From Blasia pusilla (taxonomy: Eukaryota), in NCBI GenBank assembly GCA_050084515.1, contig CM114271.1, positions 4,216,001 through 4,280,000 on the forward strand: DNA of 64,000 nucleotides, given 5' to 3'. Shown here in pieces: positions 4,662 through 59,984 of this stretch (positions within the stretch are counted from its first letter, which is position 1; every line of letters starts with the position of its first letter). A model generated the notes under the pieces. The model worked only from the letters and a program-made list of their open reading frames with translations, was not told the origin of the DNA and made no database searches. Position numbers and translations under genes: made by a program.

Positions 4662-4727
4662 CAAGCACCGTCCAACCAGGGCGTGGGGTCTATGGTCGCA
4701 AGGCTACGACAGGCACTACTTAATGAG

Positions 4728-4768
<41 letters not shown>

Positions 4769-22696: not shown

Positions 22697-25600
22697 AAAG
22701 AAAGAATGAGATGAGTGAGAGAGCTTCATGGGGGAGCTCATTGGTCACTCGCTGGTTTTGCAGGTTGGGGATCGTATTCCCCGTTCAGCGGTTCATGGGA
22801 GTGCTCACCGTAGCTGGATCCACTCATTTTTTATGTTTTCTTTGCTGATTTTTTGTTTGTAAGTGTGGCGCGCGGGAGCGCTGCCCAATTTTTGATAGGG
22901 ATTGAGTATGGGGCCGAATTTCCCCATGTCGGTACTCTCGGGAGCACCATGTAGCTTGTTGATTTTTATTTTCACAGGTTTTATAATTTCTTTGGGAGAA
23001 ATCAGCGCGGAAGCGCTGCCAAATTTTGTGTAGGAGAAAGAGACGTTGGGCTTTACGACAATCCCCGTCAGTTTTTACTAGAATGTCCGATTCAAAATAT
23101 TTTTTAATACTGTCACAGATCGTAAAGCTGTGCACGCTGTGCAAAGACAGTGCACAATTTGAAGTTGCGAGCAAAAATTTATGGTCAATCTTGCAGAAAT
23201 GCCATTGCTAGGCAATTTTTAGGGTAAAATTGTTCAAACCCTTAAGCAGCCGCTGCGCCGGCAGCAGCCATCGCCGTCATAGTCACCATCAACGGTCAAC
23301 CATCACCATCAACGGTCCTCTGTCACCGTCAACGGTCTACCCTCCACCGTCCACTGGCGGTCGCCACCGCCGCCTAGCACTGATCATAACCGCGTTCGGC
23401 CGTTGTTCACCCTTGGTTGCTATTGCCGCCATTACGGAGTGGAGGGTCTTCCACAACGACTGTTGATTCTTTGACTTGTGCCACCACCACGTACTTTATT
23501 TTGGCCGCCATTGTCATCGCAATTTCGTCATCAACGTGTGATGGCAAGTGACCTCGGGTTATAGTGTTTGAGTTTTCATTTCATTCTGCTATGTTGTGAT
23601 TGGTTGCTGCTCGAGGACGATCGAGTACCGTGCCGTAACGCCCATAGCTGCAACGCGCCGCCGATTGCCGCGTTGTGCCGCTCGTGGCCGCACCGCACCG
23701 TCTCGATCGCAGAGCCGCTCCTTCACTAAGGAGCACATCGTGTGTATTTTTTATTGAGGAGGGTATGCCATGGAGTGCCGCATCCCATTATCGAGTGACG
23801 TGCCGTTTTGTGCCGCCAGTGCCGCACCGTACCGCGGGATCCGCACCGCATATCGAGGAGGTTTGAGCAGCGTCAATACGAGAGGAGTACGACTTGCTGA
23901 TTGGAGGAGTTGTCTTCAAGACCAAGTTGGGGTTGAAATTTGCAGTTGCCGAGGAGCGACATCGACATTATTATCAGGTTACCCAATCTGGTCTCTTACC
24001 CTACATGTGTGACGGAATTCCGGGTATTAGGAAGTTATTTGGGATATTGGGCTTCATACTAATGTTGAGAGCATTGATGGCATATGGGTTGAGGGGACAT
24101 ATACCTATGTGGGATGTCCAGAGTTGAGGATGGTTTATCGATGAGATTATAGATAATTTGATTTGCCGCACCACGCCACTTGTTGCCGCACAACACACAT
24201 CTCGGTGAGAGAGTGTAGCTTGAGTGCCGCATGTTAGATTGAGTGATTCCGTGATTACTCGTGAGGTTGAGAGTGATCGTGTGAAGGGGGCACGAGGGTC
24301 ATCACGGCATCCTTTTGAGACTTTGAGAGGTGAGGTGGTAGACCGGAGAGTAGCTCTAGAGGGTTTATGCGGAGTGGTGCGAGGTTTCGAGGGTCTCCAC
24401 GTGCGGGACCACCTCGACCTCCTTCTGTGTCATCTTTAGACAAGGAGGAGGGCATAGAGGAGTTGAGTAGTGCTTTGCCACTCACATTGAGTAGTCCTAT
24501 TGCTTGGACGTACAAGATGGACGACTGACGTAGAGGACCGCGTAGGTTCTTAGGTGCAGTAGGCACGATAGAGTTGCAAGACTTCATCGCGGAGTTTAGG
24601 AGTTGGTACGACTCACAACGTGCTAGGAACTCTAGAGAGTTCAACCCGTTATCAGCATGGAATGTATGTTCCAGCATTTAGAGGGGACACCCATGAACGA
24701 TTACCATGAGTTCTCCCACAGATATGCCCAAGAGATTGAGGCATGGCGACTCTACTTTGACCCACACTATGTGTCATGGACGGAGTCGTTCCCAGTTGAG
24801 GAGGAGGAGTTAGGAGACGCTACTTCCTCTTCCACCAATGATGTTCTAGGAGGGTAACTCACATTGGAGCACTTGCACTGTCCATTCTGGTTCGTCCCAC
24901 GTTCCACCCCGTGGTTGAGTTCTTTGCTGAGTTGAGGGCGAGCTACCAGGGGGTACGGACGGAGAAGTTGCGGAGCATCCACGACTTCGAGAGGCGCCCG
25001 GGTGAGAGTAACCTCAATGCCATAGCGGCAATGTGCTCATGTAGCTGCTATATCTAAGCAGCCATCCCAGCCTCACGCCCGACGTCTCCCTCGACGCGTC
25101 TAGGTGGTGGGACTCTACCTCCTCCACAAGCAACTCCACCACCCTGTTAGGCAACTCCAACTCCGCGTTCCCCAATAGGACCACCTGGTGTAGATTGTTG
25201 CTATGGCATGGAGGTTACTCGATGTCAGATCCGTGGCCTTGAAATCATATGGAGCAGCCAAAGATATGGAGGATCTTGGTTTGATGTGTGGGGTTTCCCA
25301 GGTGGAGGCCGCCATAGTTGTGACGCGTGGAGCAGCCGTAGAGTTGGATCCACAGCAAGGGGAAGCCAGGAAACAGACCAGACTTCCTCAATCTTTCACG
25401 TTGTCCGAGGCGATGAGGACCCCATCAATGGGTCCTCATCAGAGTTCTTGAAGAGTTGGTGATGTTATTGGTATGCAGCATAGAGGGCAATGGGAGAAAC
25501 AAGTGCGAAGACTCCTATTGTGGATGCTCAGAAGGAGCATGAGTCGAGTACGATGTTGGGGGCGGCCACAATGGTGTACCGTGCTCTGCTATTTTTTGCT

Positions 25601-26586
25601 TCCGATGTTATGACATTGGGAGGTACGCCCATCGAGGTGTTTCGGCTGGCTGCTATGCTAGGTGAGCGTGGAGTTGGAGTTCTTGCATCACGTTCAGAGG
25701 TGATTGCAGAGGAGGTGATGGACCTGCCCTTGGAGCTTATGCTCAGGCCGTCCACGTTAGATTCATGGTAGGCTACGGCTGCTAGGATGGCGGAGATGCC
25801 CACTAAACCCGCGATAGAGCGTGCCATGGCTTCACCTGGTGTTGTGTAGTTGGATAATCGGGGAGAGGTCTTCGAGTTGGTGAGTCCAGAAGGTAGAGCT
25901 TTTAGTCCGCAACGCGTCTTGTTGGATTCAGGAGCGCAACCCTTGATGTTGGGGAAAGCGTCATTCAGAGGATTGGGTTTGATGAGAGCCAATGTAGAGC
26001 GTTGTCCATTCCGGATATAGACATCCTTGGGTGGAATGAGTACCACCCAGTATATTACCCAATAATAGGTCATGGTGAGGATTCGCCCGGGACATCCTAC
26101 AGATGAGTCCGTGGTGCGAGCCAAGGCGATAGTGACTGATGGAGAGTCCTACGAGGTCTTGGTTGGTGGAGCAGTGTTATACCCGATGGTGTTTTCATTG
26201 GATTACTGGGAGAAGTCAGGGTCCTACAGACCAGGATGGCAGTCAGGTGATGGGCGCCTTAGCTCATTACCCTTTCGATTCAAAGGTGCAGTGATCGAGC
26301 GACGTCTAGGAGAGATGGCGACCTTAGCAGCATTGAGCAGTGCCATCACTTGGCCTAATGATTTGATTGAGGGACATGTCCATACAAAGGATACTACCGT
26401 TCCTAACATTTCTATGGAGAGGAGTGTCATGGTAGTCGCATCAGTCCGTGGAGGAGAGGTGCCGCTTTGGGGCTCGATTGAGGAGCTTCGACGCTTAGCC
26501 ACTAAGCATGTACAGACCGCGTGGAGCGAGATGTTTGCACTAGAGTGTGACGAGTCAGAAGACCCCAAGTAGCTAGGAGTGCCACT

Positions 26587-27590
26587 ATGACCCCTTTGGA
26601 CACCACCCTGATTGTGTGGTGCATCCCAGAGGAGGGTATTCGGGTATTGGATCTCTTTGGAGGGATCAGCACTAGGTTAGTTGTTGTTTTGCAAGCTAGA
26701 GTGCGCGTGCAGCAGTACCTGTATGTGGAGATTGATGATGTTGCGAGGCGCGCTTCCTTTCACCATGTGACGAAATTATGCCTCCGTTTTCCCGACTTAT
26801 TGTCTGCGTCCGCCATTCAGGGTTATGAGAGTTCCCTACCGAGGGACATTTCATTGTTGGAGGCGCAAGACTTTGAGCGGGTAGGGACCATAGACTTGGT
26901 CATTGCTGGTTGGCCATGTCACCGTCAGTTGAGTGTTGGACAGGGTAGCAGATTAGCTGACTCTCGGTCCATGTTGTTTTGGGAGATGATGCGAATCTTG
27001 CGACACTTGCAGGAGCATCAGTCTCGTCCTCCAGCATACATTATGGAGAATGTACCAATTTTGGGCGATTCGAGGTCCCGTGTGGTGACGAGCGCACAGC
27101 AGGTGCGGGCATGGATTGGCTCGGTAGTTTTTTTGGATGCGTCAAGTGTGGGTTCACGAGCGCATCGCCCGTGTGTGTGGTGGACCAACTTGGTGCCACA
27201 TGAGGTGTTACGGAGGGCTTATGCGCGAGTGGGGCTTCCCTCCGAGTTTTTGGTGGATTCTATATTGGATCCGGGCCGTCGATCATTAGCAGTGAGGCAC
27301 GCTGATTGACCGTTGTTGACTGTGGTCATCAGGATTAGCATGCCACGGGCAGCCTTTCCCACATTGGTGAGTTTTCTTGCTTCCTATGCATTCAAGGAGG
27401 CCGGGCCTGGCTTGGTTTGGGATGACTAGGAACAAAGGTTGGTGGAGCCCAACGCCGATGAGCGAGAGCGAGCAATGGGATTCCCTATAGGAGTGATGGC
27501 AGTACTATCACTATCAGAGGCATCACGATGTCATGTATTGGGTCAGGCGATGGACCTAAACTGCTTGACATGGTTTTTCAACTTAGGAGT
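26587..27590 (+). pseudogene. DNMT3-like C5 cytosine methyltransferase domain of element 1
   Basis: Motif I IRVLDLFGGIS; II YVEID; IV DLVIAGWPC; VI YIMENV; VIII LDASSVGSRAHRP..WWTNL; IX ERERAMGFP; X VLGQAMDL. Internal stops at 27307 and ~27427. Confidence 0.9.
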
Positions 27591-29840
27591 AGTTGAGTAG
27601 GGTCGTTTGAGGATGCGACAGATCACAACAGTTGCGTTGGTGAGCCCCGTGCCTACCAAGACGATTAAGGCAGGGGCTGGGGCAAGATCCGAGGAGTCCA
27701 AGGTAGTCTCTCCCGATCACCACGGATGATCGGGAGAGACACCCTTGGACTTCTTGGGATGTTTTGCAGATACGCCAAGAGATGGTAGCCACAACATTGA
27801 GCGTGGTTCCGGGTACTGCACGTGGAGATGAGAGTTCTACTGTCCGAGACGGGGTTGCACCATAGCAACCACCAACACCCGCGCCAAAGAGTCCTACCGA
27901 TGGAGACTTGGGAGCCAGATATGGGCCCTAAGTTGACAAGAGGAGAGCGGCGCCGGATACATCAATTCCTGAGGAGTTATAGGAGCTATTTTGCATTTAG
28001 CATGCAGGATTTGGGTACGTTGAAGGGTCTAGGGATCCCCATTGAGTTGTCGAGTGACACGCCGATCTTCCGATGATCCTACAAATACAGTGATATGGAG
28101 AGGGCTCTGATTCAAACTAGGAGCCAGAACTTGGTTAGAGCAAGACTAGTGAAGATGTCGCATGGAGAGTATGGATCTGCCACTATCATGCCCGCCAAGA
28201 AGGATGTGCATGGCAACTGGACGGATAGGCGGATATGTGGAGATTACCGACCTATCAATTGGCAGACAAAGCCCGATAGGTATGCCATGCCCACCCCTGA
28301 GGAGATCTTTGATATGATTGGGCATGCAAAGGTATTCAATTCATTGGATTTGCAAGCCGGATACCATCAGCTGCCTATCAGATTGGTGGACAGGCAGAAG
28401 ATGGCATCTTGGGGCATTGATTCTCACGAGAAGGATTGTTTGTACCAGTGGCTGTCCTTACCATTCGGGTTAAAGAACGCCCCGGCTGAGTTTCAGAGGA
28501 TCATGGATAGGATCTTGGCATGTCTCGATTTTGCTAGGTGTTATATTGATTACATCGTAGTCTTTAGCATCATGGTTGAGGAGCATGAGGGACATCTAGA
28601 GAAGGTGTTTCGATGATTGCAGTTACATGGGTTGAAGCTACATCCAGGCAAGTGCAAGTTCTTCTACGACCAGATTGAGAACTTGGGTCATACAATATAC
28701 CCAAGGGGCCTTGATGTGCAGCAAATGAAGGTATAGGCTATTTCACGCCCTACAGATGTGAGTCAAGTTTGTGCATTCATGGGATTGGAGAACTTCTATC
28801 GACGGTACGTCAAGGGTTTCAGTTCGATTGCAAAGCCGCTAACCTTGCTGACCAAGGTGGATCAGGAGTGGCATTGGGGGGATGAGCACGAGAGAGCATT
28901 TCAGCTGCTCAAGGATAGATTGATGTCCGCGTCCATATTGAGGAGACCGATCAGGGGGCTTCCTTTCCAGTTGCATACCGTTTGGAGCATGTTGGGGCTT
29001 GGAGCCGTGCTCACCCAACATGACGATGATGGTAGAGAGTTCGTGATGGCTTATGCTAGTCGCTCGAACAACGCTGCAGAGGCAAAGTATAGCTTGTATG
29101 AGGGTGACTGCTTGGCTGCGGCATGGGATGTTGCATATTTTAGGTGTTATTTATTCGGCAACCCCTTTACCATCATTACTGATCATCAGCCACTTAAGTG
29201 GTTGATGGAGTTCGACAAGCTTACAGGGAAGCTTGCGAGGTGGGCTCTTATGTTGCATGAGTATGACTTCCAGGTGGTGCATAGACCTGGGACGCTCAAC
29301 CAGGATGCATAAGGTTTGAGCCGTAACCCATATGGGAGTCAGCGAGATGCGACTGGAGCTCGTTGGCATGGTGAGAGTGATGAGGAGTTGGTGCCAAGAT
29401 GGCACGCATCAGCTTATTTCGGCTTGTTGGCTATGGGGCGCCAGATTGCTGAGACTTCAATGGCAAGGTTTGATGGAGAGTCCTTAGATCCAAAGGCCGG
29501 TGAGGAGACAACTGGTGGCCGAGACATTCACGACTATGGAGTGTTCTTGGAGTATATGCGTACTGGTAGCGTCGCGAGCATAGTGGGTACTAGAGAGCGG
29601 GATCGGATCCTATAGCAAGCCAGACGGTTCCGGTGGGAGGGGACACATGTGTTGTGATTTTGGGAGGATGGTAGAGTGCGTGTGGTGCCTCATCCTTCGC
29701 AGAGAGCACGTTTATTGCGTCATGCCTACGAGGAGTTGGGTCATTTTGGAGTGAAGCGAATGTACAGCTTGCTCCATATACAGTATTGGTGGCGAGGCAT
29801 GCAGACTGACGTTCAACAATTTATTGCCCAATGCATGGTG

Positions 29841-30866
29841 TGTCGCAACCCTAATAACCAAACAACACCAAATAGGCGCCAAGAGGAACATCAAAACTCA
29901 AGGGGACTCACGTTGCGATGTTTGCGCTTTGGAGAGGCGTTTGGAAAGGTCTCTTGGAAAAGTCCAAGAGATGAAACGCGGAACAGATTTGTATGTTTCA
30001 TGCGTTAGTGGTCGCGACCAGGAATACTAGACCAAACGCGAGCCAAGACTTGAGATGAGTTGAGTCTTGGAAGGTTGGTTGCCAAAGAGGTAAGAACCAG
30101 TTTTGGAACACGACTAGCAATTGGGGAATTTGACTGTATTTTGGACCATAACGTTTATCCCCAAGATGAGTTGGGGACAAATAAGGGCGCGTTAGAAAGC
30201 TTATCTTGAGAAGCTTCCAATGCACTAAAGATCTTAGCAAACGCTTAAGTATGGATTGAGATATTGGCCACAAATGATTGTATGAGCAATCGGGTTGAGG
30301 GCCAATTGGAGAGGCCCGGGTGTCTTTCCCTAAATATAGGGAACCCCAGAGATCCCCAGATTACTAGTAAAGGAGGATTCTCTCCAAGATGGCTTGGAAC
30401 ACGAATCCCCACTTTGAGCACCAAACGCCAAACTCCATCACCCCACGGGATGGAGTTTGGCGTTGGAACTCGAAACCCAAACCTAATCCAAGGGAGTGGA
30501 CTTTGTACGCCACCCTTGGATTCCAGCCCGAGATTCACTTTGTGCAAGTGTTGGTTTGGGACTCATTGGATGTCCATCGGATAGTTTGAACCGCCAGGCC
30601 CGAAACGCCGTTTGAAGTTCCTGAACCGACCAGAAAGTCTATCCCAAGTCTTTCGAAACTTGCCCGTGTTGTAAACCGCAAAACTAGGAAGGTTGAGCTT
30701 GATGAGAGACCAAGACGAGAACTCGGAAAGTTAGCTTGCTGATTGATCCAAGACCCGACTAACCAGAGTGCATGTTTGGATGCAGATCAACGTTGAGAGT
30801 AAGACCTACTGAACGCACGCTTCCGCAACAACAAGATTAACGTTCAAGGAGAGTAGGCGCACGACA
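29841..30866. mobile_element. Solo LTR of another family nested in element 1 integrase
   Basis: TGTCG...CGACA termini with 5-bp TSD TGGTG (29836-29840 and 30867-30871). Removing it restores QCMV|CDRVRASFN, matching element 2. Confidence 0.9.
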
Positions 30867-32172
30867 TGGTGTGTGATCGAGTCCGAGCATCGTTCAATTC
30901 TCCGACTCCACAGTTGCATTCACTTCCAATCATGGATTTAGGTTAAAGATGTTGTTTGGATTTTGCAAGACCTTTGCCTTTGACGGAGCGCTATAGTCGT
31001 TATGTGTTGGTGATGGTCGAGCACTTCTCGAAGTGGATAGAGTTGGTTGCATTGCCTCACAAAGCGAGTGAGAGAATAACGTATGCCTTCCTAGATCGAG
31101 TGTTGAGTCATTATAATACACAAGCTAAGGTGTTGAAAGACCAGGGTATAGAGTTTCGCGGGGAGTTTCAGGCCTTGTGTGATCAGGCGTTGATCGGCCA
31201 CCGCACTACTTCGCGAGATCATCCTGAGGCGGATGGACTAGCGGAGAAAGCGATGGTGACAAGAGGATTACGCAAGTATGGCTTGCAAAGAGGTCACCTA
31301 GGAGATTGGGAACTCCAGTTGCCGTGGTTGGCGATGGAATACAGATTCAGCAAGTAGGCATCCTTAGCGTCTTTCCCATCGTACTTCCTTTTCTATGGCC
31401 GAGAGCCAGATTTACTTGCGGCCATTCGTCAAGATGTTGGTCAGGTGTTGAACCTTCATGATCATGATGTATGGATGCGAGCATGTTCTCAAAGGACTGA
31501 GTTGTTTCGAAGAGTGATGCCCATGGCGTTTGAGAAGTTGGCGATTGCACAACATCGGGATACGTTGAGCAATGCGAATATTTGAGGAGGTGATTATCGA
31601 TCTACTATCCGGAGGTTTCATCAGGGAGACTATGTCTACTTGCAGCAGACGGCACCCACGATGTTGGATGTGATTGTAGGGCGTACCATCTTGAGAGTGC
31701 GTGAGGTTTTGCCATCAAGTATTCTCTTATTGGAGGGACGCGATGGTATGGTTTGGAAGGACCATATGAGTAATTGTGCGTCGTGTCACCTTCGGAACAT
31801 TGACGGTACAGTTGATCCGAGTTTAGCAGTAGTTCCTGCAGGCTTGCAATGTATGTTGTGTGGTTATGCCCGTGGTGCAGCCACTATGCTAGTCTGTGAT
31901 GGATGTTTGAGAGGATGGTATATGGCATGCTTGACGCCACCTCTCACTAGGGTTCTTCAGGAACGATGGATGTGTCCCAGATGTACATAGAGTAGGTAGT
32001 TCTACAATCCAACTTGTGTCTGTGACATGGATGATAAGAAGGTGACTAACAATGGGGCCACATGAGCACCCGGCCTTCTTGCTCTTAGCATCCGAGAGAT
32101 GTATGTCATGGTAGGTAAGGATAGATGGCTATCTGGAGTTAGAGGGATCTAACCACCAACTAGGGGGGCGAT

Positions 32173-32961
32173 TGGAGATATTTTTGTACTTCTTGTTTCG
32201 TTGTTTGGATGCCATGAGTTAGCATGGGATCGTGTGTGTTTGTATGTGTGTTCGGTGACAACGATGTATATTGTGTAGGGATGTATATGCGCACGACAAT
32301 TGTCACGTCTTTTAGGATAGATCGGAGAGATCTAGAAGAGCGCCTTTGTGAGTAGTGGAGGATATGCTCAAGAGGTCAAGGATGACCTGCTGAGGCCCTG
32401 GGAAACCTGCTCTCTCAGGTTTCCCAGGGTCTCTCTTAGGTTCCCCTTCATTTCGGCTCATTTGGAGCCATATTGAGGAACTTGCTATTTTAGGTAAATA
32501 CCATTTTGAGTATATGGTCAACTTTCTACTTTTGTTAAATGGCCCTTGATCTCCTACATCAGGTTAAGAGCCAAGGAGGTGACTTGGGAGCATAGGTTAC
32601 TATGGAGAGAGCTTGGGAGAGGGGAGGGGTATACCTTAAGGAGAGAGAGCTTGAGAGCTCATTCTCTCGTTGTTGAACCTCTTGGCACAAGGTGGCGGAG
32701 CTATGGTCTTTTTCCTTGTGAGTGTAACCCAAGCCTCTCATTAGGAGAGTGGGTTTGGTTTGACATGGAGAGAGATATGTGAGAGTGCACACATTTGAGA
32801 GCGATGGTGTAGAGAGAGATTGGATCTTGATTTACTGGAGATATTTTGGTACTTCTTGTCTTGTTGTTTGGATGCCATGAGTTAGCATGGGATCGTGCGT
32901 GTTTTTGTGTGTGTTCGGTGACAGCGTTGTATATTGTGTAGCGATGTGTATGCGCACGAGA
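32173..32961 (+). repeat. Element 1 3' terminus A1-AT-B2-A2, preceded by PPT AGGGGGG (32162-32168)
   Basis: A1 (32173-32298) and A2 (32836-32961) are 126-bp direct repeats flanking B2; junction CGACA-AT-TGTCA at 32294-32305. Confidence 0.92.
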
Positions 32962-34184
32962 GCTTCATCACTCACATCCACCTCTCCAAACGGAGTGCAA
33001 TGGATTTATTTATGCGCATCTCTAAAGTCTTCTAGGGTTTTGAGTTATCTCGGCTTTCACCCAAGGAGGATATAAGATTTTTTGGTGTTGGTTACTTATA
33101 GACCATTCATCACCAAAATTTATGTGCCCTTATTGAGCCAACTACACTCCGTCAACCCCACCAACTTCTCCAATTCTCTGAAGGCAGAGCAATAATGGCA
33201 CTATTTTTGCATGTCTCCAAAGTTATCTAGGGTGGAGGCTCACAGAGGCTTCACTCAAGGTTCTGCGATGCTGGTTAAGATTATTTCCTTCTTACTCCAC
33301 GCTACCGAGCCACATAGACTCCATCTGCCATACCAACTTCTTGGAACGGAGAGTACTAATGGCACTATTTCTCAACATCTCCAAAGTTATCAAGAGTCCA
33401 AGGTTTTCCTAAGGAAAGTACTATTTGGGGATACTTGTTCATACAAGAAAATCACTTCTGCTAATGGGATAAAGTTGGGGAAAATAATTTTTAGGATGGT
33501 GTGGGATTTAATGGATGTCACATCTAAGTAGCCGATAGGTAGGGATCTATCCTGACGATGACATAGAGAGCCGGCGTCCACGGACTATCTTGAATGTAAC
33601 TTCGTCTTGAGGTGTTGAATGGGGTTGAGGATAGTTCCGTTGTGTCAGAAACGTCGTTTCTAACAACTTTTCTGTTTGGGTCTTTCACAGTTGAGTGACT
33701 TACTAAAGAAGTCACCCGAATATATGTGCGCGCAGGTTACCAAGAGGATTTCTATTTTTAGGGGAAGAGCCTTTTGGCTCTTCTCACACCTATATATGGG
33801 AGAGGGATGGTTTTCCCAAGCCATCTTTCTCATGTTGGGCCATTGGAGCATCTCTCTTGTTCGTGTGTGAGAAAGAACCAGGGTGCTAGCGTCCGGATTC
33901 CTTAATAGTACAAGATGGACGAGGCTCGATATGCCAATGTAGATTGAGGAGTGGAGTTTTAGACTAGATGTGCCATTTTTACTCTTATTTTTGTTGTATG
34001 ATCTCGATGTACATGCATGAGTTGATTTTTGTTCATGTGTGGATCTATCCGTATGTTGGGGAAGATTGGTGTTGTATGGTGTAGATGTGACCAGCGATAT
34101 GTATGCACACAACATGGATATAAGAATTTTTTTTAATGAAAATTCTATATTCTTATTGCATAATACCTTTTTTGGTCAAATTCC

Positions 34185-35604: not shown

Positions 35605-38449
35605 TATATGTTAACTAGTGCACTGAAAATGCCTCCACTCTTACTTGTGTCATGCAAATTAGCGAGATGTAGTAGCATGTCATTCACACAAATTTAAGTT
35701 TTTAAGATGATAAACATCTATCTACTCACTTAAAAAAATTGATTTCATTTCAAAAATATTTCAACTCTAGAAAAGGAAAGAAATACCCCATCATTATATT
35801 ATGAAGTTTTATTTATAACATTACTTCTTGATTAATTCACCTAATTTATTTCAATCTACCTAATCTAGTTTCATCACGTGCTCCATTCACAAATAGCTTC
35901 ATATAACGCAATGATTCCCCTTATTTTCTTTCCACAAGAGATGATTTGACACCTCTTTTTTTTAAATAGCTTCACTTCTTTTAGAATAAACTTCCCTCAC
36001 ACATTAACACCACTTTCCTTAATTAATAGTATAGATTATAACTAATTTATCTCTTTTGGGCATAGAATAGTATCATCAAGAAGAAAAAATCACTAAAATC
36101 CTCCCATAAACATTTTCAAACTTTCTCCCTCCACGGTGTACATTAAATGGACATAAGTGAACTCAATAAATATGGGAGGTTATGATATCGATACCTTTTT
36201 TTATCCATAAAAGTTCATCAAAATCATTGAAACAAAGTGATAAATGTTACTCATATTCATAAGACTTTGTGTTGCATATAAAGGTAGCATTAGTGAGTGA
36301 TCTCTATGAATTATTAGGAGATATATTATTGTAGTCATTCCTTCAAAGTTTTTATAAATTTGAGAGTGGAATGTGCACAAATGAGTATGATCATACCTTA
36401 AGAAATAATGAACAAAATGGAGAAAAAAATCATGATATTAAAAATATGGTCATGGTAAATTTTTAGTGATGGTGTTTCTATGTAAGCATTATTATGCCAT
36501 TAAGGTTTTGGCTATGATTCTACCATATATTCCATATTGATGTCAAAATAGAAAATCATATGCATTACAAAAAAGTGTGCTCTTAGTGTACACAAATTTT
36601 GACCAAGAAAACCTAATAAGAAGTGTCAAAGCACAAAGGAACTAACACATGTATAATCTACGGTCAAGCAAGAACTTGTTTAGAAAGTGACAAGTAGCAA
36701 AAATATAAGAATTTGCTTACAAGATCGAGCTCTTTCCTTGTTCCAATTTCTTTTGTGGCTAATATCTAGAATCAATTTTTTAACAAGTAAAAATACATCC
36801 TTGGAAAGGTATTTAGAAATGTTATAATGCACCTCAACAATTTTGAAAGTATATCTAGACAATTTACAAAGAAGTAATTTCTTAGCTCTAGATCTAAACA
36901 TCTCATAAATACATGAAGGGAAGGGAAAAGTTCCAAGTGGCTACCGATCATCTTTTGGGTAATTTCTTAATGTGATTTCTACACTATGATATTAGGGTGC
37001 ATAAGTAGTAAAAAATAATTACCATGGGAAGTTTAATATGAAAGAAGAAGTGGAGAGACTTGGAGTGAGGAAGAGATAAATTTCTTAAGGGAAGGTGGAT
37101 GACTTTTTCTTCTCTAAGTGAGGAGGTAGAGAATTTGGGAACCTTGTTTTCCTCAATTAAGGAAGGATGATAGTTTCCAAAATGAGGAGGATGAATTGGG
37201 GGTTTTCTTATTCCCAAAACTAATAGGTGGAAAGGATGAATTTCCAAATGAAGGAGGGGGCCATGGAGTGAACTTTCAAAATGTGCAATAAAGGAAAAAG
37301 TGCATTGAAATTTTCTCAAAATGAGCATAAGAATTTGTTATGTTTAATTTGTGCAATGCATGAGCGCAATAAATCTTTTCTTTATTCAATAGACTTCCCT
37401 CTTAAATATGAAGCACTAAAGAGACAAGAAAAACCATACAAAAAAAAGCCACAAATATTTTCCAATAACCAAGAAGGGGAAACTATCAAACATAAAATAG
37501 AGAATGAGAATATCCCACAAGAAAAAATAGACAATGCATGAATTATTTAATACTATTAATAATTTGTGTGCAATGTATGAGAGTCATATTAACATGTACC
37601 AAATTCTTATCATGTTAGATAGTTTTCCAATCCACATTTTTTTTTCATAGAAAAAAGCCATTTAAACAATACGATGAACTCTTTGAAAGACCGGATGCAT
37701 CAACATTCCATCATGAGGCTTCACTTAGTTTAGAATATTATTTCCATGATAAGCTCTATTATTTTAATTCTAAATTAGATGAGTATTGTTCCATTCATAC
37801 TTAGCCACATGCAACCTAGTGATTTCCTTATTTACTTTCCATAAGAGATGATATGATACTTCATATTTGCCTCTTGAAAATAGCTACAATTCTCTTCGAA
37901 TTGACTTTCCTCACATAAACCCTCTTCCCATTGTCCCTTACTCAATTAATAATATAAAGGCTATACTATATTTTACATGACTTAAAAGAAGGATGGCAAG
38001 TGTTCAAGGTGGAATATGTCCACTACTAAATCTTGATATGTTAAGACTACAAGAATACTCATCAACTTTCTTATGTCATCCACTAGGCATCCCTCTCATC
38101 AATGTTAAAGTTTGAGTGTGATAACTATCTTTCCATTTTTTTAAAATTCCCCTTTTCTATTCTCATAAAATGATTCCAATTATGAATATTCCAACTTTAT
38201 GCTAGGCAAGAATATCTCATCTTTCAGATTTATGACTTGCAAGGTGTATCCCTAATGGCATTCCTTCATCCTCGCGTGCTTCACTTTGCCAAGCATACCA
38301 ACTTAGCTAATTGGATGTCATCCAAGTTGGCATGTATCCATTGTATGAGTTAGTGGTTGATATTGTGGATACTGGATCCTTCACATCCTCCACTACTAGT
38401 ATATTCTTTGAATTTGGGCGGAAGAAATTGTGATGTTCCTCTAAATCTC

Positions 38450-39032
38450 TGTCGTGCGAATCCACATCGTCATACAACATACATCGCTGACATACCATAC
38501 TCACATACATACATAACATAGACGAGAGCATCCACAAACACAAGTGTACCACAACTGAAATCCGTGAAAGACCTACTGTCATAAAACACGTATAGAATCA
38601 CATACAATCGAGCCAAACCCACTCCACGATGGGAGAATCTAGGTCGAAGCTTGCAGGAGACACCATAGCCAAGAGCTCTACTCACTACCAAGGCTTACTC
38701 CCAACACAACAGGCTCAACTCAAAGAACTGACTGTTCTTTGAGTGCACTCCACCTTATATCCTCCAACCTAAGAGTGGGCCCTACTGGAGAAGTCACCCT
38801 CAACTGAGTAACCCCCAACCCTATGTATGAAATTGCATCTCTACCTAGACACTGCGGCCCTACATAAGGTATGGCCTCTACTAGCACACTATACTCTACG
38901 ACATAATCCGTATGGTCATGACAGCTGTCGTGCGAATCCACATCGTCATACAACATACATCGCTGACATACCATACTCACATACATACATAACATAGACG
39001 AGAGCATCCAGAAACACAAGTGTACCACAACT
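38450..39032 (-). repeat. Element 2 3' terminus A1-GC-B2-A2, preceded by PPT (plus-strand C-run 39033-39039)
   Basis: 107-bp A repeats flank a 368-bp B; junction TGACA-GC-TGTCG at 38919-38930. Confidence 0.95.
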
Positions 39033-39203
39033 CCCCCCCTAACTAGCGGTTAGGTCCCTCTAACTCCCAGGTAGCCTTATACATCTACTACATGCTATAA
39101 ACCTTCTTCGGTGCACGAATCAGAAGGCCGGGTGCTAGGTTGCCCCATCGTTAGTCGCACATCTATAATCCATATCATGCAAAGATCAAGTCATCTACCT
39201 CTC

Positions 39204-42200
39204 CTAAGTACATCGAGGACAAACCCACCTTCCTGTAGGAACAACATCCATACGTGGAGTCAAACACATCATGTGCCAACCCCTAGAACACCGATCACAC
39301 ACCAACATACGGGCTGCGTTACCAGCAGACCCACACAACATGCACCTCAAGCTAGCACGTTTCATGGCTAAGCTTGGGTCAACAGTACCATCCACATTTG
39401 GAAGATGAGATGGCGCACAATTACGCACATGGTCCTTCCAAAAAACTCCATCACGATCCTCCAACATTAGAACTCCAGAAGCTAACACCTCGCGCACTCG
39501 TAAAATAGTACGGCCTGCCGTCACATCCAACATTGTCGGTGCAGTCTGCTGCAAATAGACATAGTCCCCCACATGGAACCTATGAATCGATGGTCGATAA
39601 CCTCCACCCCGAATGGTTGCATACCGCAACGTATCCCTCTGTTGAGCAATTGCAAGATTCTCATAGGCTGTTGGCATAACTCTCCGAAAGAGCTCTGCCC
39701 GCTGAGAACACACTCTCATCCACATCTCTGGGTCATCAAGGTTCACCACCTCACTAGACTCCGACAATTGATCTTTGGCAAGTCTGGATCTCGGCCGTAT
39801 AACAGAAAATAAGGTGAGAAGGAAGCCAAGGATGCTTGGCAACTGAACCTATACCCCATGGCTAACCATGGCAACTGAATATCCCAGTCTCCAAGATGCC
39901 CCTTTTGTAGGCCATACTTGCGCAATGCCTTCTTCACCGTCTGAACCACACGCTCAGCCAAACCATCCGCCTCTGGATGATCTCGAGACGTGGTCCGATG
40001 ATCAATCAACGCCTTGTCACACAAGACCTGAAACTCACCCTAAAACTCTGTACCCTGGTCGGTCAACACTTCATCTGGTGCACCAAAATGACTAAGCACT
40101 CTATCAAGAAACGCATACGCCGTTCCCTCACTTGCCTTGTCAGGTAACGCCACCAACTCAATCCACTTGGAGAAGTGCTCCACCATCACCAACACATATC
40201 GATGATGTCGTACAGTCAACGGTAACGGTCCCGCAAAGTCCACACTCCAATGGTAATCCAACCCCATAATAGGCAAGGGGTGTAACTGTGGTGTAGGGGC
40301 ATTGAATGATGCCCTCACCCGGTCACAAACCATACAACGTGACACCAACTGCTGGACCTGAGTATGCATGCCACGCCACCAATACTGACCAAGGAGTAAG
40401 CTATACGTACACTTTAACCCAAAATATCCCAACTCCTCATGGGCATGTCGCACAATCCGCTCTCTCTGAGCCAAATGCGGCACTACTCGTACTCTACCAT
40501 CCTCCCACACACGGAGAATATGTGTTCCCTCCAATCGATACCTCTTAGCACGTTGAAGAACACGGTCTCGCTCCTTGGCACTCACTATGCCTGGCACCCT
40601 ACTGGTCCGTGGGAACTCCAATACCAACGCATCATGATGAATATCACGCTGATCCGTACCACCATCTCCAACCTTAGGATCTGAAGGCTGGCCATCTCCC
40701 CTCTGACTAGAGTAAGATATCATGTGGTTCTCCATACTAGAGTCCACCCCTAACCAACATAAAAAGGTGGATGCATGCCAACCTGGCACCATCTCCTCAT
40801 CAACCTCGCCATGCCATCTAGCCCCAGTTGTATCCTCTTGGCTAGTACATGGGTTCCTACTCAACCCATCAAAGATCAAGGTTGGCAACTCCGTTCTATG
40901 TACCACCCGGAAGTCATACTCCTGTAAGATAAGAGCCCACCGTGCAAGCTTCCCTGTAAGCTTGTCAGACTCCATCAATCACTTGAGTGGCTGATGATCA
41001 GTAACAAGGGTAAACTGTGTGCCAAACAAGTAACACCTAAAGTGTGCCACAACCCACACTACAGCCAAGCACTCTCCCTCATATGAACTATAACGCGACT
41101 CTGCTGCATTATTCGAACGACTTGCATATGCCACCACAAACTCCATGTGCTCATCATCATGTTGTGTCAACACCGCTCCAAGTCCCAACCTACTCCAATC
41201 AGTGTGTAACTGAAATGGGCGCCCTCTAATAGGTCTCCTCAAGATAGGCGCCGCCACCAACTGGGCCTTAAGCTCCACAAAAGCTCTCTCCTGATCATCT
41301 CCCCATTGCCACTCTTGATCTGATTTCAGCAATTGGTTCAAAGGCTTTGCCATAGCACTAAATCCCTTCACATACCTCCGATAGTAGTTCGCCAATCCCA
41401 TGAATGCTCGAACTCTACTCACATCTACCGGACGTAGAATAAGTGCAATAGCCTCCACCTTTGCTTGCTGAACTCCCAAACCACCTGGATAGATCACATG
41501 ACCCAAGTACTCAACATCCTCATGGAAGAACTTACACTTTCCTGGATGCAAACGTAGACCATGAGCTTTCAACCGCTCAAACATCATCTGCAAATGTATC
41601 TGATGCTCCTCCATCGTGTTACTGAACACCAAGATATCATCAATGTAACATCGAACAAAATCCAACCCTGCTAGGATCCTGTCCATCACTCTCTGAAACT
41701 CAGCAGGTGCATTCTTCAACCCAAAGGGTAAGAATTTCCATTGGTACAAACAATCCTTGCCATGAGAGTTGACACCCCAAAATGCTGTCTTGGCCTTGTC
41801 ACTCTCCCGAATCGGAAATTGATGGTATCCTGCCCGAAGATCCAAAGTACTAAAAATCTTTGCCTGTCCCACCACATCAAAGATCTCCTCAGGTGTAGGC
41901 ATGGCATACCTATCGACCTTGGTTTGCCGATTGATAGGACGGTAATCTCCACACATCCGCCTATCCGTGTAGTTGCCATGCATATCCTTTTTAGCAGGCA
42001 TGACAGTGGCTGATGCATACTCTCCATGCGACAAATCCACTAATCTAGCCTCCAAAAGGTCCAACGTCCTACTCTGAATCAGGTCCCTCTCCCTATCACT
42101 ATATCGGTAGGGACGACGGAAGATTGGCGTATCACTAGCCAAATCAATCCGTATACCGGGTCCAACCAGAGAACCCAACTCCTTCATGCTAAAGGCAAAA

Positions 42201-45200
42201 CAACTCCTATAAGCATGTAGGAACTGTGTCAAGCGTCGTTTCTCACCTCCCGTAAGCTTGGGCCCAAGTAATGGCTCCCAAGTCTCCTCCACTGACACAC
42301 TAGAGGGAGAGGACGATGCCATTAGCTGCTACGCAACCCCCTCACAAGATGGTACACCCTTAGCTACACCATCATCTGAGCAAATAACTCCTCCACCAGC
42401 ATGAGCAACCAACTCCACATGCCCAGCCATTACATCCCATTTACTCCAAGGATGCAAAATACTACTCTCCTCGCCCCCAGCCGATGCCTCTACCGTCCCG
42501 GTAGCCATCGAGCTCATTACAAGGGGTGGAAGATCCACATACATAGTCTGAAGTCAACGCTGCTCGGCCATACCAAGACTCAAAATCCAAGTCAAACAAT
42601 TCAGGTCCATGGCCTGACCCAACACATAACGTCGTGAAGCCTCAGAAATGGAAGCAACCGTTGTCACACCAGTAGCAAATCCCATCGCACGCTCTCTCTT
42701 ATAAGCATTAGGCTCCACCAACTGTCGCACATGAGAATCCCATACAAGCCCAGGACCACCTTCCCTATATGCATGTGACGAGGGAAAACTCACAAATGTG
42801 GGTAGTGCCATCCTAGGCTGGCCCACACGGTTCACCACTGCCATGGGTGACCGATCAATAACCCTCACCACCTGAGAAAGTCGCCCAGTATCCAAGATAC
42901 TATCCACTGTAAGGGAAGGTATCGCTGCACTGCATTATATGCTCGACGTAGAACCTCCCTAGGCAACAAGTTTGTCCACCACAAGCATGGACGATGTGCA
43001 CGCGAGCCAACTCGCGCTGCATCTAACAACACCGCTGGTCCAATCCAAGACCGCATCTCATGAACACTCGCCATCATCCGGGTCCGAGTGTCACCCAACA
43101 ATGGAACATTCTCCAGAATGTAAGCTAAAGCACGTGCCTGATGAACCTGAAGATGTCGTAACACCCGTAACATCTCCCAAAACAATCGAGACCTAGGGTC
43201 GTGTAATCCCTCACCACGACCAGCACGTGTATGACACTGACATGGCCATCCCGCAATCACCAAATCCACAGGACCAACCCTCTCAAGGTCCTGCGCCCCC
43301 AACAATGCAATGTGTGACGGCAAAGCACGCTGGTACCCACGAATAGCTGATGGCGGCAACAACTCAGGATATCTCCGCATCAACTGACCAATATTTCGGG
43401 ATGAGACTCTCTGGGCCGTCTCATCTCGCTCCACATACACGTATCTCCGCACAGGAATACCGACTTACAACACTGCAACCAAACCAGTGCTAATCCCACC
43501 CAAGAGATCTAACACACAAATGCCCTCCACCGGATACTGCCATACAATGGGTGTAGTATCCAAAGGGATAATCCAACTGGACCAGAAGTAGGAGTCCGCC
43601 GTGGGGCCTCCTCTTCCTCGTGAGGTATAACAGCCTCACACCAAGCCTCTTGCACTAGGCGATCAGCCTCCTGCCGTAGTGCACCGCCTGAACTCCAAAG
43701 TGGCACATCCAACGATGAGGATGCCACTGCTGCAAAAATAGTGACCTCCTCTACCTCCTCATGCGCAGGAGAATCCATAGCATAAACATTACCCTCCAAA
43801 AAGTCTCCTGGCCAAGTGACTACTCCACTAAAACCAACCACAGATGCTAACACTGTTGGGGAAGACCCTCTTGGTCAAGCCCCATAAATAAATCTCACAG
43901 GAACTTGGCTCATACGTCCATCCCCGCACTGCCAACCAAGTCTATAAGACGTTGTCTCGGTCCAGTAATCCATCCAAAAACCCATCGGGTACAATATTAC
44001 TCCTCCAACTAGTACATCATACGACTCGGCTGATGTGACTACCGCAGATACTCCCAACCGGGAGCTATCAGTCGCATGATCTGGTCTCAACTATACAGAA
44101 AACTTCTCTCGTGTCATGAATTGAGACCTATCGTTGGCTCCTCCAAGTGATGTTTGAATCTGGAATGGGCAAGGCTCAAGCTCTGACCTCCGAATACCCA
44201 AACCAATACATGCCGCCTTTCCCAACATCAAAGGTTGGGCACCAGAGTCTAACAAGACTCTATCTGGTCTATACACATATCCTGTAGGACTCACCAATCA
44301 GAATATCCCACTCCGGTTGTCCAACATACATACACCAGGTGTAAGCCTCTCACGATCAATGGCTGGCCGGGCGGGTAATGCATCCATCTTCGCCGTTGCT
44401 GCCTGCCAAGTAGCATTGGTACTCAATGCTACACTTGACATAGAGGGTCTCTCCACCGCAAAACCCTCATCCACCTCAACACGTGTAGCAGTAACACCCC
44501 CACGTTCACACAACGTGGCTGCTAGCTGAAATACAGGAGCTAAGTCAACTCCTAAAGCCATCAACTCCGTGGCCGAAAAAAATGGGGATCCCAACACTGA
44601 AGTTTCCATCCGCAATACTGCACTAGATGCTGCATCCGTGTCTACTACACGCGATGTAGATGCCTCAGTCCCCACTGTCGGCTCAATAGGTTGCGTAGGA
44701 ACCATGGATGGAGTCCTAAGCACCTCAGACAATAAGAATGACTGGGGAAGCCTAGCCTGCCTCCCAGCCTCACCCCTTTGTGGGTCCAACTCCACAGTAG
44801 CACCACGTGGCTGTGATGCTCGAGTGGATCCTCTCGTAACTGCAGCTGATGCCTCAACCTGTGCTGCACTTGCCATATAAGAGAAATCATCCCCTCCATA
44901 AGAGGTGGAAGCCCCTGCTCCCGAACCTGATCTATGTTGGATCCCAGCCATAGTAGCCAACTCGCTCCAATCTGCTCAATCTGGCGACCATAGATGACTC
45001 TGTCGTAGTGGTAGGGGTAGCCACCGTAGGCTCTCCAACCACTGGTCCACCTCTACCACCCCTACCACCTCTACCACCTCGGCCTCTCGGAGCTACTCCA
45101 CCACGGCCGCGGCCTGATCTCAACTCTGGATGAAGATCAAAGCAACGCTCTCGAGGATGACCTGGTCTCCCGCAATGATCACACTGAGTTGGGGCCGACT

Positions 45201-46400: not shown

Positions 46401-47915
46401 TGCCGCACCACCACCAAATTACCACCACTAAGTAACCAAGTGACGTCGATGTCGCTATACTATTCTAGCTCTACTAGCTATGGGTGTAGGCAACCTAACC
46501 TCTCATCACCACATGAAGCCTCCCACGGTCTACTGGTCATCACTCCAGCCTCACTACCGGTAGCACATAGGAGTAACACTACTCTGGAAATCAGCGTCAA
46601 CCCTAACAATGGGCGTGCAAGCAAGAAGCAACGATGGAGGGGATCCAAACACAGGAAGTCCAACGACAACCCTCCAATTGCAAATGGAAATCAAGATAAC
46701 ACAATCCACAAACGTGGCGCCCCCTGAACCCACAAAACCCACCACACAATTCTAACGCAATAGTTACTCCGCCGCGGGTCGATGACGTGCTAGTCGAACT
46801 CGCAGCACCTGAAAATATCACTTGCATGGAGAGGCTACACCGTACTATACGCTAGAGGTACATCAACCAAAAACCTGAGATGCATAAAGCGCCTAACATA
46901 TCTTCGAACAGCACCAAATGAGCTACAATAGTGTGTACACTGGCATAGTTAAGAACTCAGCAGCTAAGCGTCCTCTAGGCACAATAGCCCAAAGATGGAT
47001 GACCAGTTATGCAACACTCAAATCATAAATCCTGCAAAAATTGCCTAACGCCCAAGCAAGCAAGCTTGCTTGCTTGCTCCTTGCTCCTTACTCCGCCTCT
47101 CACGCCCACTCGCCCCGACCTACCACGAGTTGCATCGAAGCCTCAAAACGCCGAGAAATGCTCGAGACATGCCCCTATCGCCACGCTTGCCATGCTTCGC
47201 TATGGAGATAGGCCCAACCAGGGCGCCCCCAATGGGATAGGCGTCTCCAAAAATGAACGAGTCACCAACCAACCAGCCCCTCCGATCCGCTGTCCACCAT
47301 AGCTAGACCTTGAGCTAGTCCGCAAAATTTTGATCAGCAATTACTTCACAAATCCTTGACCAAAATTGAATCTATTTTGACCAAAATTCAATTGGCCACC
47401 ATAGCTATCTCTCCACAAAAAATCAGCTACAACGGAGCTCTGTACTCCGAGCTAAAAATCAGACAAACTTGCTGTCCATACACCTCCAGAATCGCAAATT
47501 CGACAGCGCTTCAGCCCAGTTTCATGCACGCAGAAATCCGCAACGCTCCACACACTCGATCAAATAGCTTCACATGAGATCACAATACAAGTAGCAACAA
47601 GAACCTCTCACCCGATCTGGATGAACTTCAACAGAGCTTCCGCACTCCACGCTCTCCTCATCAGAAAACCGTCCAACACGAACCAGAATCTTCAATCCTT
47701 GATAACTTCCAACTCCCTTGACGAAATCCAGCGATCTAAAGCACGTTGTAAAGCTCTCAGCAAGGCGCTTCTTTCCCAACCAACCAGGCACCAGATTCAC
47801 ACCTCCAACATAGGCCACAAGCCACGAACATTCACGGCCGAGTACACAATCAACCCTAACCAGATCCTACTGATCCACTATCGAAGCTACCATCGATCTA
47901 TTCTAGTTCTTTGAG

Positions 47916-48283
47916 TGAAATTCGTGAAAGACCTACTGTCATAAACCACGTATAGAATCACATACAATCAAGCCAAACCCACTCCACGATGGGAGAATCT
48001 AGGTCGAAGCTTGCGGGAAACACCATAGCCAAGAGCTCTACTCACTACCAAGGCTAACTCCCAACACAACAGGCTCAACTCAAAGAACTGACTGTTCTTT
48101 GAGTGCACTCCACCTTATATCCTCCTACCTAAGAGCGGGCCCTATTGGAGAAGTCACCCTCAACTGAATAACCCCCAACCCTATGTATGAAATCGCATCT
48201 CTACCTAGACACTGCGGCCCTACATAAGGTATGGCCTCTACTAGCACACTATACTCTACGACATAATCCGTATGGTCATGACA
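47916..48283 (-). repeat. Element 2 repeat B1 (5' terminal, promoter-bearing)
   Basis: Copy of 38556-38923; minus-strand ATATAA at 48120-48115 and Inr TCAGTT with +1 at ~48089. Confidence 0.93.
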
Positions 48284-49083
48284 TCTCTAAAAACCATTGT
48301 ATGTTCCTTTGGGTGCGTCGCCTTACGATCATCTCTTATCACTTCTTATAACTTTATTGGCTTCTTCTATTCATTCAACTAATTAAATAACATAATCACT
48401 TCTCGAGCTTGATTCCTTATTCTTATCATATTGTATCTATGATCTAACCCTTAAGAAACATAAAGTAAACAAAATACTGGCATGACATTATGTAATTAGA
48501 TTGATGTCTACTACCATCCCTCCCAAGGTATTTAGGATGCCCAAACATACCATAAACCTTGCAAACTCAATCGATTTTCTTTCCTTAAGATATAACATTA
48601 TACCACATGATTCCTTTTTTTTAAAAAGAAAATCTCGATTGTCTTAGAAAATTCTTTCCTAACTTAAATATTGCTTTCTCCCTTCCAACTCGCATCCCCT
48701 CTCATCAATTAATAATATAGATTGAGAAACAAGAGAGAAACAAGAGTAGGAAGATTAAACCTCCTAAGAGCAACATTCCTTGCTGTTAGAACACAACTCC
48801 AAAACTTATTTCTTAGGTATCTTACAGAGTAAAGCGAACAAAATAATAATTAAAAGTGAAATTATGGACATTATTCTACCAATCAATGTGAAATTCATGA
48901 TTTTGAATAGGAATGAAAGACCTCTCCTATCCTTCACGACAATGTATAAATTGCACTAAAGAAATCTAAGTTCCATTAATGTGTGGAGTATTTTATTTTT
49001 GCACAATGGAGGAAAAGATATTGTATTAAAACAGAATGGCTATCAATTGATAATATTAATAAGAAAAAAAAGCAGAGTGGATA

Positions 49084-58644: not shown

Positions 58645-58749
58645 CAAACGTCTAAGATACCCATCAAGATGTCCAAATTCTAGTGGAATATGATAAGTTG
58701 TGTCATAGAATATGAAATTTTAAATGCATTCAAATAATGAGTTTCCATA

Positions 58750-59900: not shown

Positions 59901-59984
59901 TGAATTTCACTCTATGTACAGCAGCGCGCGGAGGTAGCGCCCAACCGCCGCTGAGAACCAGACCTGGCGGATCCTCAGTGGGTT

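Follow-up and report, generated by a model that had tools for sequence, protein, structure and literature searches.

Two related retroelements, E1 and E2, lie in opposite orientation in the window (the whole stretch of 64,000 nt that we analysed), and their integrated form, judged from its sequence, is circularly permuted relative to the customary LTR-internal-LTR arrangement. Our best reading, to which we assign a probability of roughly 60%, is that such elements integrate from an end-joined intermediate of the 2-LTR-circle type, which would be cut at a palindrome. Repeat finding revealed both elements, which are ≈ 71–79% alike over matching stretches, and their boundaries were read base by base (Table 1). 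In the sense direction both have the order TG-B-PBS-internal-PPT-A-NN-B/A-CA, where A and B are repeats, NN is a 2-bp spacer and the slash marks a direct junction, and each is flanked by a 4-bp target-site duplication (TSD). B begins with TGTC and A finishes with GACA in E1 and E2, with the one exception that the final CA of A2 in E1 reads GA. No further fragment of A or B was found elsewhere in the window.

Table 1. Coordinates of E1 and E2 in the window, followed by the related loci grouped by structure
Feature	Position	Strand	Remarks
E1, whole element	22184-32961	+	boundaries read base by base
E1 left TSD GCTT	22180..22183	.	abuts TG directly
E1 repeat B1, 513 nt	22184..22696	+	starts TGTCAGG
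E1 self-primer site within B1	22519-22532	+	TATACC ≈ 28 nt upstream
E1 primer-binding site AAAGAAAGAATGAG	22697..22710	+	13/14 complementary to 22519-22532
E1 pol region	26551..31990	+	degraded, broken by stops; Pfam
E1 DNMT	26551-27309	+	Pfam
E1 RT	28077-28616	+	Pfam
E1 RNaseH	28737-29312	+	Pfam
E1 integrase H2C2	29658-30008	+	Pfam
E1 rve	30947-31357	+	Pfam
E1 PHD	31586-31990	+	Pfam
E1 polypurine tract, G6	32163..32168	+	4 nt before A1
E1 internal repeat A1, 126 nt	32173..32298	+	ends CGACA
E1 palindrome GACA-AT-TGTC = GACAATTGTC	32295..32304	.	spacer AT 32299-32300
E1 repeat B2, 535 nt	32301..32835	+	87.3% identical to B1
E1 terminal repeat A2	32836..32961	+	91.9% identical to A1; terminal CA reads GA
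E1 right TSD GCTT	32962..32965	.	same 4 bp as left side
E2, whole element	38450-48283	-	boundaries read base by base
E2 TSD TCTC, right side in sense orientation	38446..38449	.	identical to 48284-48287
E2 terminal repeat A2, 107 nt	38450..38556	-	sense 3' end ...CGACA = right terminus; 99.1% identical to A1
E2 repeat B2, 367 nt	38557..38923	-	TATA box, R, U5; RNA 3' ends inside B2
E2 B2 predicted transcript start/self-primer site	38718-38729	-	complementarity to PBS
E2 palindrome GACA-GC-TGTC = GACAGCTGTC	38920..38929	.	GACA 38920-23, GC 38924-25, TGTC 38926-29
E2 internal repeat A1	38926..39032	-	5' part of U3 of cDNA LTR
E2 polypurine tract, G7 on sense strand	39033..39039	-	directly 5' of A1
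E2 pol region	39204..43464	-	broken by stops; Pfam
E2 PHD finger	39204-39848	-	Pfam
E2 integrase H2C2+rve	40040-40978	-	Pfam
E2 RT-RNaseH	40979-42328	-	Pfam
E2 DNMT	42865-43464	-	Pfam
E2 primer-binding site ACTCAAAGAACT (sense)	47905..47916	-	12/12 complementary to B positions 195-206
E2 repeat B1	47917..48283	-	sense 5' end TGTCATG = left terminus; 97.0% identical to B2
E2 TSD TCTC, left side	48284..48287	.	same as 38446..38449
Full 3' form, other 17 elements			L003, L006, L015, L020, L022, L023, L032, L035, L042, L045, L046, L049, L051, L063, L066, L076, L077
Contig ends inside B2, 2 elements			L011, L048
Stop at A, then unrelated DNA (B-internal-A), 13 elements			L016, L026, L027, L031, L034, L043, L047, L050, L052, L053, L065, L067, L069
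Perfect 4-bp TSD			E1, E2, L003, L016, L032, L047, L049, L063
TSD missing			L066, L031, L069

The sense-strand ORFs of E1 and E2 contain, in this order, DNA_methylase, RVT_1, RNase H, Integrase_H2C2, rve and a C-terminal PHD finger (Pfam). Intact relatives have the same domains plus a zf-CCHC gag and an aspartic protease, and a D..D-35-E motif can be recognised in the family consensus. That RT is followed in pol by RNase H and then by an integrase whose core is of the DDE (rve) type and which has an H2C2 zinc finger is typical of Ty3/gypsy elements. So are the TG..CA termini (TGTC...GACA) with a short TSD (4 bp, the usual range being 4–6 bp) and the position of the PBS next to U5 and of the polypurine tract next to U3. 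The identical LTRs that Ty3/gypsy elements carry at both integrated ends are absent; the cDNA that we deduce would be LTR-internal-LTR. From the features of the DIRS order, we found the split direct repeats A1-internal-B1-A2-B2, but not the lack of TSDs and not the tyrosine recombinase that replaces the DDE integrase. Phage_integrase (PF00589) was absent from the ORFs that we scanned, namely 21 on the sense strand of E1 and E2 (100 aa or longer) and 63 from both strands of the related full elements L003 and L020 (80 aa or longer). Members of the IS3 family have a DDE transposase only and do without reverse transcription, whereas E1 and E2 have RT, RNase H, PBS and PPT. E1 and E2 are members of a streptophyte clade of Ty3/gypsy-type retrotransposons, the domain order of which is gag-PR-DNMT-RT-RNaseH-DDE integrase-PHD. 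Since the nearest named proteins are from Marchantia polymorpha (75–84% identity to the RT-RNaseH of E2), E1 and E2 belong to a land-plant (liverwort-like) branch; remoter homologues occur in Closterium, Klebsormidium (43–51% identity to the E2 RT-RNaseH), Chara, Calypogeia and Haematococcus.

The initial annotation had noted that the two outer ends of each element meet internally as GACA-NN-TGTC with exactly 2 bp between them, and that these 2 bp are missing at the outer termini. Both observations were confirmed. The junctions of E1 and E2 are perfect 10-bp palindromes that sit precisely on the boundary from repeat A to repeat B. At the outer ends, which lack the NN spacer, a perfect 4-bp TSD directly abuts TG and CA (GCTT/TGTCAGG ... 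CGAGA/GCTT in E1; TCTC/TGTCGTG ... CATGACA/TCTC on the plus strand in E2). To compare these junctions with those of relatives, we used 80 related metagenome loci (36–86% identity) from an RT-RNaseH profile search, which were analysed by self-comparison and motif searches; all counts below refer to distinct elements, obvious duplicates having been merged. The context CACGACA-NN-TGTCATG with its 2-bp spacer was seen again in 20 more distinct elements on metagenome contigs. Because of this recurrence, and because the chance of finding a palindrome of 10 bp at one given position is ≈ 1e-3, the palindrome is not due to chance. Spacer length was constant, 2 bp in 22/22 elements (E1, E2 and the 20 from metagenomes). 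Spacer sequence was GC in 10 elements, AC in 5, AT in 4 and GT in 3; the 10-bp palindrome thus holds for E1 and E2 but not as a rule for all copies, AC and GT spacers being non-palindromic. This spectrum would fit an ancestral GC within CAGCTG that decayed by C>T and G>A transitions at CHG sites. The junction layout is genuine and characterises the family.

A and B can be named from their position relative to the priming sites. A run of G ends 0 to 4 nt before A1 (6–7 G in E1 and E2, 6–9 G in every related locus); in place and form it is a classic polypurine tract. At the other end of the internal region, the 12 nt that directly follow B1 find their complement within B (12/12 in E2, 11/12 in E1). 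The complementarity was at least 11/12 in 7/10 elements, and the other three, which are more decayed, reached 9–10/12 at the homologous site. As a control, none of the 400 12-mers from the following 400 nt reached 11/12. There are three PBS types, AAAGAAAGAATG, ACTCAAAGAACT and TCTAGAAAAACT, each of which matches its own B; that is, PBS and B covary. A TATA box lies ≈ 30 nt upstream of the PBS-complementary site in B. The complementarity between PBS and B is the signature of a predicted self-priming of the Tf1 type. A tRNA-type PBS was also considered and was rejected: no TGG abuts B1, and ARAGORN found no tRNA gene in the window. The placement of PBS, PPT and TATA box therefore identifies B as promoter, R and U5, A as the 5' part of U3, and A-NN-B as the LTR of the cDNA. 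The premise of the initial annotation, that PBS/PPT priming yields a linear A-NN-B-internal-A-NN-B, thereby gains sequence support from the G-run at A1 and the self-complementary PBS after B1.

We propose the following cycle. The RNA would start in B1 and end in B2, and reverse transcription would be self-primed as in Tf1, the first ≈ 12 nt of the RNA pairing with the PBS. PBS and PPT would yield the linear cDNA A-NN-B-internal-A-NN-B, the ends of which would not be the integrase ends. Joining of both cDNA ends would create B/A, a junction of the 2-LTR-circle type. The DDE integrase would act on the palindrome GACA-NN-TGTC in the PBS-side LTR and cut on the 3' side of each CA; the resulting CA-3'OH ends would carry 5' overhangs of 2 nt, as retroviral ends do after normal processing, and the element would be inserted with a 4-bp stagger. 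The NN would be missing at the outer termini because the 2-nt overhangs are lost. The integrated TG/CA ends are accordingly proposed to be the two halves of the internal palindrome, which would serve as the att site. The internal A-NN-B, copied via RNA, would seed both LTRs of the next cycle. As a conjecture, the A-NN-B LTR might itself descend from the junction of an ancestral circle.

The B/A junctions, located at 32835/32836 in E1 and 38556/38557 in E2 in agreement with the initial annotation, have edges that coincide with those of PBS and PPT, which identifies B/A as a junction of joined ends (U5 end plus U3 start). To our knowledge, the joining of both ends of a finished linear cDNA is the only way to obtain such boundaries. 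Among the B/A junctions, 13/20 consist of exactly the U5 end plus the U3 start; six carry indels exactly at the join (+1, -1, -2 at an AT microhomology, -3, -3 and +6) and one more has a substitution. No indels were seen at A-NN-B junctions (0/22), at B1/PBS junctions (0/12) or, G-run length apart, at PPT/A1 junctions (0/30). The restriction of scars to B/A fits a junction that is formed anew in each cycle. In the DNA contigs of run X1, in which the family is very abundant, one contig contained a B/A with a 33-nt deletion plus T. The joined form may be a covalently closed circle, which host end joining would produce; alternatively, reverse transcriptase may bridge the two ends.

A closed 2-LTR circle would contain two identical palindromes, and the alternative product B/A-NN-B-internal-A is therefore predicted about half the time, that is, about as often as the form observed. 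It was absent. None of 23 5' ends had A-NN in front of the PBS-side B, and the count was 11:0 against the alternative among elements with repeats 79–97% identical, in which assembly can separate the two forms. Although dead on arrival, alternative copies should persist like other insertions; that none was seen argues for a polar process. Host end joining into a symmetric circle does not predict polarity, whereas the single permutation argues for a polar process such as a reverse-transcriptase jump. By this route the plus strand, finishing last at the U5 end, would jump onto the completed U3 end; the jump would bridge the ends and extend the right side only. The cutting of an end-joined circle, as envisaged initially, is thus supported as regards the joined-ends B/A and the TG/CA ends with 4-bp TSD on the permuted form, but not as regards a circle that is cut freely. 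Overall, the integration model of the initial annotation appears largely right, but would need a polar step. Since the junctions of the proposed circle all occur also in integrated copies, sequencing reads cannot reveal the circle.

The full 3' structure A-NN-B/A was present in 19 elements, including E1 and E2, with RT identity down to ≈ 40%. In two others the contig ends inside B2, and L039 reads A-NN-B/flank; it is otherwise rearranged and is not explained by our model. An assembly artefact is excluded for E1, the repeats of which are 8–13% diverged, and by the recurrence of the layout in many contigs. No extra copies of A or B were present in the flanks of the 80 loci. The TSD was perfect in 8 of the 15 elements with both ends resolved, matched at 3/4 positions in 4 and was lacking in 3. 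The remaining class, B-internal-A, comprises 13/33 distinct elements with a readable 3' end, and includes two copies with perfect TSDs, L016 (TACA) and L047 (TTTT). B-internal-A copies may have arisen by action of integrase on linear or 1-LTR forms, by A1×A2 recombination, or by short-read assembly collapse of near-identical A copies.

The frequency of B-internal-A and its perfect TSDs raise the question of whether this is the primary product. On a linear cDNA or a 1-LTR circle, the integrase would then cut at both internal att half-sites; the full form would be a rarer by-product, made by this enzyme on longer joined or concatenated cDNA, and would be dominant among copies since it alone is replication-competent. 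We consider this reading as a whole unlikely. The copies are independent insertions, so replication competence gives no enrichment among them, and recombination or assembly collapse would account for B-internal-A equally well. Moreover, the joined-ends form would still be required for the replicating lineage; the proportions would differ from those of the end-joined reading, and the mechanism would be the same.

To analyse transcription, reads of two runs carrying the same species label, X22 and X23, were mapped at a likeness of at least 90%. Family RNA was on the sense strand, first mates being almost all plus, as expected for minus-strand RNA in stranded libraries. RNA depth in the bin 38639-38977 was 77 (X22) and 110 (X23); in the bin 38300-38638 it was 1.5 (X22) and 2.9 (X23). 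It follows from this drop that transcripts end inside B2 and that a few percent at most cross B2/A2. As B/A is not in the bulk RNA, it must be remade at the DNA level. Read peaks indicative of transcript begin or end at 38697, 38762 and 48153 were weak and ambiguous between B1 and B2, and the 'begin' peaks at 38697 and 38762 were partly inconsistent with the predicted transcript start, for which the expected position is 48089 in a B of the E2 type. We infer that transcription starts in B1 and ends in B2, and we infer the start and poly(A) sites likewise. RNA joints at 48250>38602, 38981>39078 and 39676>40684 were also seen; they represent few reads or variant copies.

These measurements bear on a DIRS/Ngaro-like cycle, in which B/A would be inherited via a read-through RNA ending in A2, templated bridging on the internal repeats, not a join of free ends, would close a circular cDNA and the integrase would open it. 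The layout is formally that of the split direct repeats of DIRS-order elements, and the legends of Fig. 1e and Fig. 4c in PMC5890265 describe the KnitGypsy-Dnmt3 repeats in this way. Against such inheritance stand the depth of 1.5–2.9 over B2/A2, compared with 77–190 in adjoining RNA, the exact match of the B/A edges to those of PPT and PBS, and the indels private to B/A in 6/20 elements, of which templated junctions have none. Furthermore, TSDs are present and a tyrosine recombinase was not found in the ORFs scanned (E1, E2, L003 and L020). We therefore give this cycle little credence. Finally, an ordinary LTR retrotransposon whose LTR is B alone, with copies of A that have no part in integration and stem from post-integration duplication, nested insertion or misassembly, is highly improbable: B starts with TG and the B1/B2 pair is what LTR-finding logic would choose, but B has no terminal CA and no TSD surrounds B1..B2, the PPT precedes A and not B, perfect TSDs lie at the B1 start and A2 end in 8/15 elements, the layout recurs in the 19 distinct elements over the range of RT identity given above, and the divergence of the E1 repeats excludes assembly collapse. 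In practice, LTR finders will treat B1/B2 as the LTR pair, overlook the TSD and set the element ends 107–180 bp away from their true positions.

Joined-end circles of retroviruses and LTR retrotransposons are taught as by-products. Contrary to this view, the anatomy of the genomic copies implies that the joined-end junction is a required step. We see even odds for a more general statement: that throughout this DDE-integrase clade the sites recognised by integrase have shifted away from the tips of the LTR into an internal palindrome, so that end-joined cDNA became obligatory and productive, the join being polar and probably a third template jump of reverse transcriptase. In that reading the clade would comprise liverwort-like genomes, Klebsormidium, Closterium, Chara and many soil- or moss-associated metagenome contigs. 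If true, a 'junction' pathway like that of insertion sequences would be within the capacity of retroviral-type integrases in eukaryotes, and the convergence of a DDE element on the repeat layout of tyrosine-recombinase retroelements would be explained. The idea is directly testable, since the family is high-copy and transcribed in its source and the nearest named relatives are in the genetic model M. polymorpha.

The Ngaro/PAT/VIPER elements of the DIRS order have the layout A1-internal-B1-A2-B2, and a circular intermediate has been proposed for them; they encode a tyrosine recombinase and make no TSD. E1 and E2 share the terminal layout of split direct repeats with Ngaro and PAT, but have a DDE integrase, TG..CA ends and a 4-bp TSD. 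They also differ in having two junction types unlike each other, the templated palindrome (A-NN-B) and the untemplated join (B/A). In the bacterial insertion sequences IS3/IS911, IS30, IS21 and IS256, the ends abut with a 2–3-bp spacer, and the DDE enzyme cuts and inserts this circle or tandem junction. The abutting ends of E1 and E2 with their 2-bp spacer bear a mechanistic resemblance only: the insertion sequences are DNA transposons with a transient junction and a spacer derived from the donor flank, whereas in E1 and E2 the junction is permanently inside the LTR, is copied through RNA and has a spacer of constant length.

Among LTR retrotransposons, the account in PMC6317226 that we rely on places self-priming in Tf1/Sushi and in the plant Tcn1 clade. 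As in those elements, in which the first ≈ 11 nt of the transcript match the PBS at U5, the stretch that follows U5 in E1 and E2 is the complement of the predicted transcript 5' end; copies of Tf1/sushi and Tcn1 are ordinary LTR-internal-LTR, however, and E1 and E2 have a PHD finger instead of a chromodomain. A possibly related case is Chlamydomonas Gypsy-7a_cRei, which has a PHD finger; according to the legend of Fig. 6A in PMC9940879, it is drawn with 'LTR subparts', and its left LTR is without the last 8 bp of the right one. The layout itself has been in print since 2018: de Mendoza et al. (PMC5890265) state in their Fig. 4c legend that the repeats of KnitGypsy-Dnmt3 from Klebsormidium nitens follow the DIRS arrangement while its domains are Gypsy-like. 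Its Ty3/gypsy pol is combined with a C5 DNA methyltransferase, as in E1 and E2. The mechanism is not given there; Section 9 of that paper mentions no PBS/PPT, att site, TSD or mechanism, and its supplements may add detail. A search of open-access full text returned no mechanism for this layout in a DDE element. What is new, within the reach of these searches, are the proposed att palindrome, the PBS predicted to be self-priming, the TSD, the scars at B/A and the absence of the alternative product.

Cleavage of palindromic LTR-LTR junctions by integrase has been described for foamy virus (PFV) and HIV-1 (PMC1180852, PMC1905944, PMC4372172). The likeness to the pathway proposed here is that a retroviral-type integrase cuts a CA...TG palindrome in circular DNA and so regenerates integration-competent ends. 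In retroviruses it is the joined ends that form the palindrome, and this pathway is a minor or disputed one. The joined ends B/A of E1 and E2, by contrast, are non-palindromic and uncut, the proposed cut site lying 107–180 bp away inside U3, and in elements of this type the end-joined route appears to be obligatory.

Among the related copies, only L039, a metagenome locus, has a right end resembling that predicted for the linear cDNA of E1 and E2, the two Ty3/gypsy-type copies in the window. There (L039 13012–13560), PPT-A-GT-B is followed directly at the end of B by unrelated DNA, and the second A repeat (A2) is missing. The locus also lacks B1, and 5 kb upstream it carries a piece of A in inverted orientation; it may just be rearranged. 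A second related locus, L031, possibly retains the 2-nt spacer at its right end (13186–13246), together with a 6-bp imperfect duplication (TCTAGC/TCCAGC). Both this end and the AGC flanks of L031 and L042 (see the table) could reflect either chance or variable processing of overhangs.

A distant relative, L080 (1–7347; 37% RT identity), has junction motifs unlike those of the E1/E2 family. The first 99 nt of its contig are identical with the last 99 nt, and it contains a pair of 66-nt repeats (100% identical) 413 nt apart. Possibly, L080 is an element that was assembled as a circle and whose split repeats are laid out in a similar way.

An RNA joint between 48250 and 38602 links, in sense orientation, position ≈ 322 of B with position ≈ 34 of B. 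It was found in one read of X22 and five reads of X23, two RNA runs carrying the species label of the window source. This joint looks like a truncated U5-to-U3 junction without A, and it may stem from a rearranged copy or from a template-switch artefact.

Features of E1, E2, related loci and other repeats in the window (window positions unless a locus is named)
Feature	Position	Strand	Remark
C5 cytosine DNA methyltransferase domain, E1	26551–27309	+	upstream of RT
C5 cytosine DNA methyltransferase domain, E2	42865–43464	-	upstream of RT
PHD finger, integrase C-terminus, E1	31586–31990	+	
PHD finger, integrase C-terminus, E2	39204–39848	-	
Flank ahead of TGTC ending in AGC	L031 4127–4160; L042 4396–4430		like internal junction
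Third retroelement, unrelated to E1/E2	~58455–64000	+	continues past window end
zf-CCHC gag of third retroelement	59955–60362	+	
RVT_1 of third retroelement	61053–61682	+	
105-nt repeat pair	51686–51790; 58455–58559		79% identical
~91-nt unit, four copies	4660–5183		(TC)n run at end of each; 82–93% identity to reference copy

Two CHG sites lie within CAGCTG of the proposed att palindrome at the internal A/B boundary. The spacer variants AC, GT and AT look as if they had arisen from GC by deamination. Conceivably, methylation of the palindrome affects cutting by the integrase.

The PHD finger is kept in most relatives of E1 and E2 and may serve as a chromatin-reading targeting module. In chromoviruses, the C-terminus of the integrase carries a chromodomain, whereas in E1 and E2 the PHD finger occupies that position.
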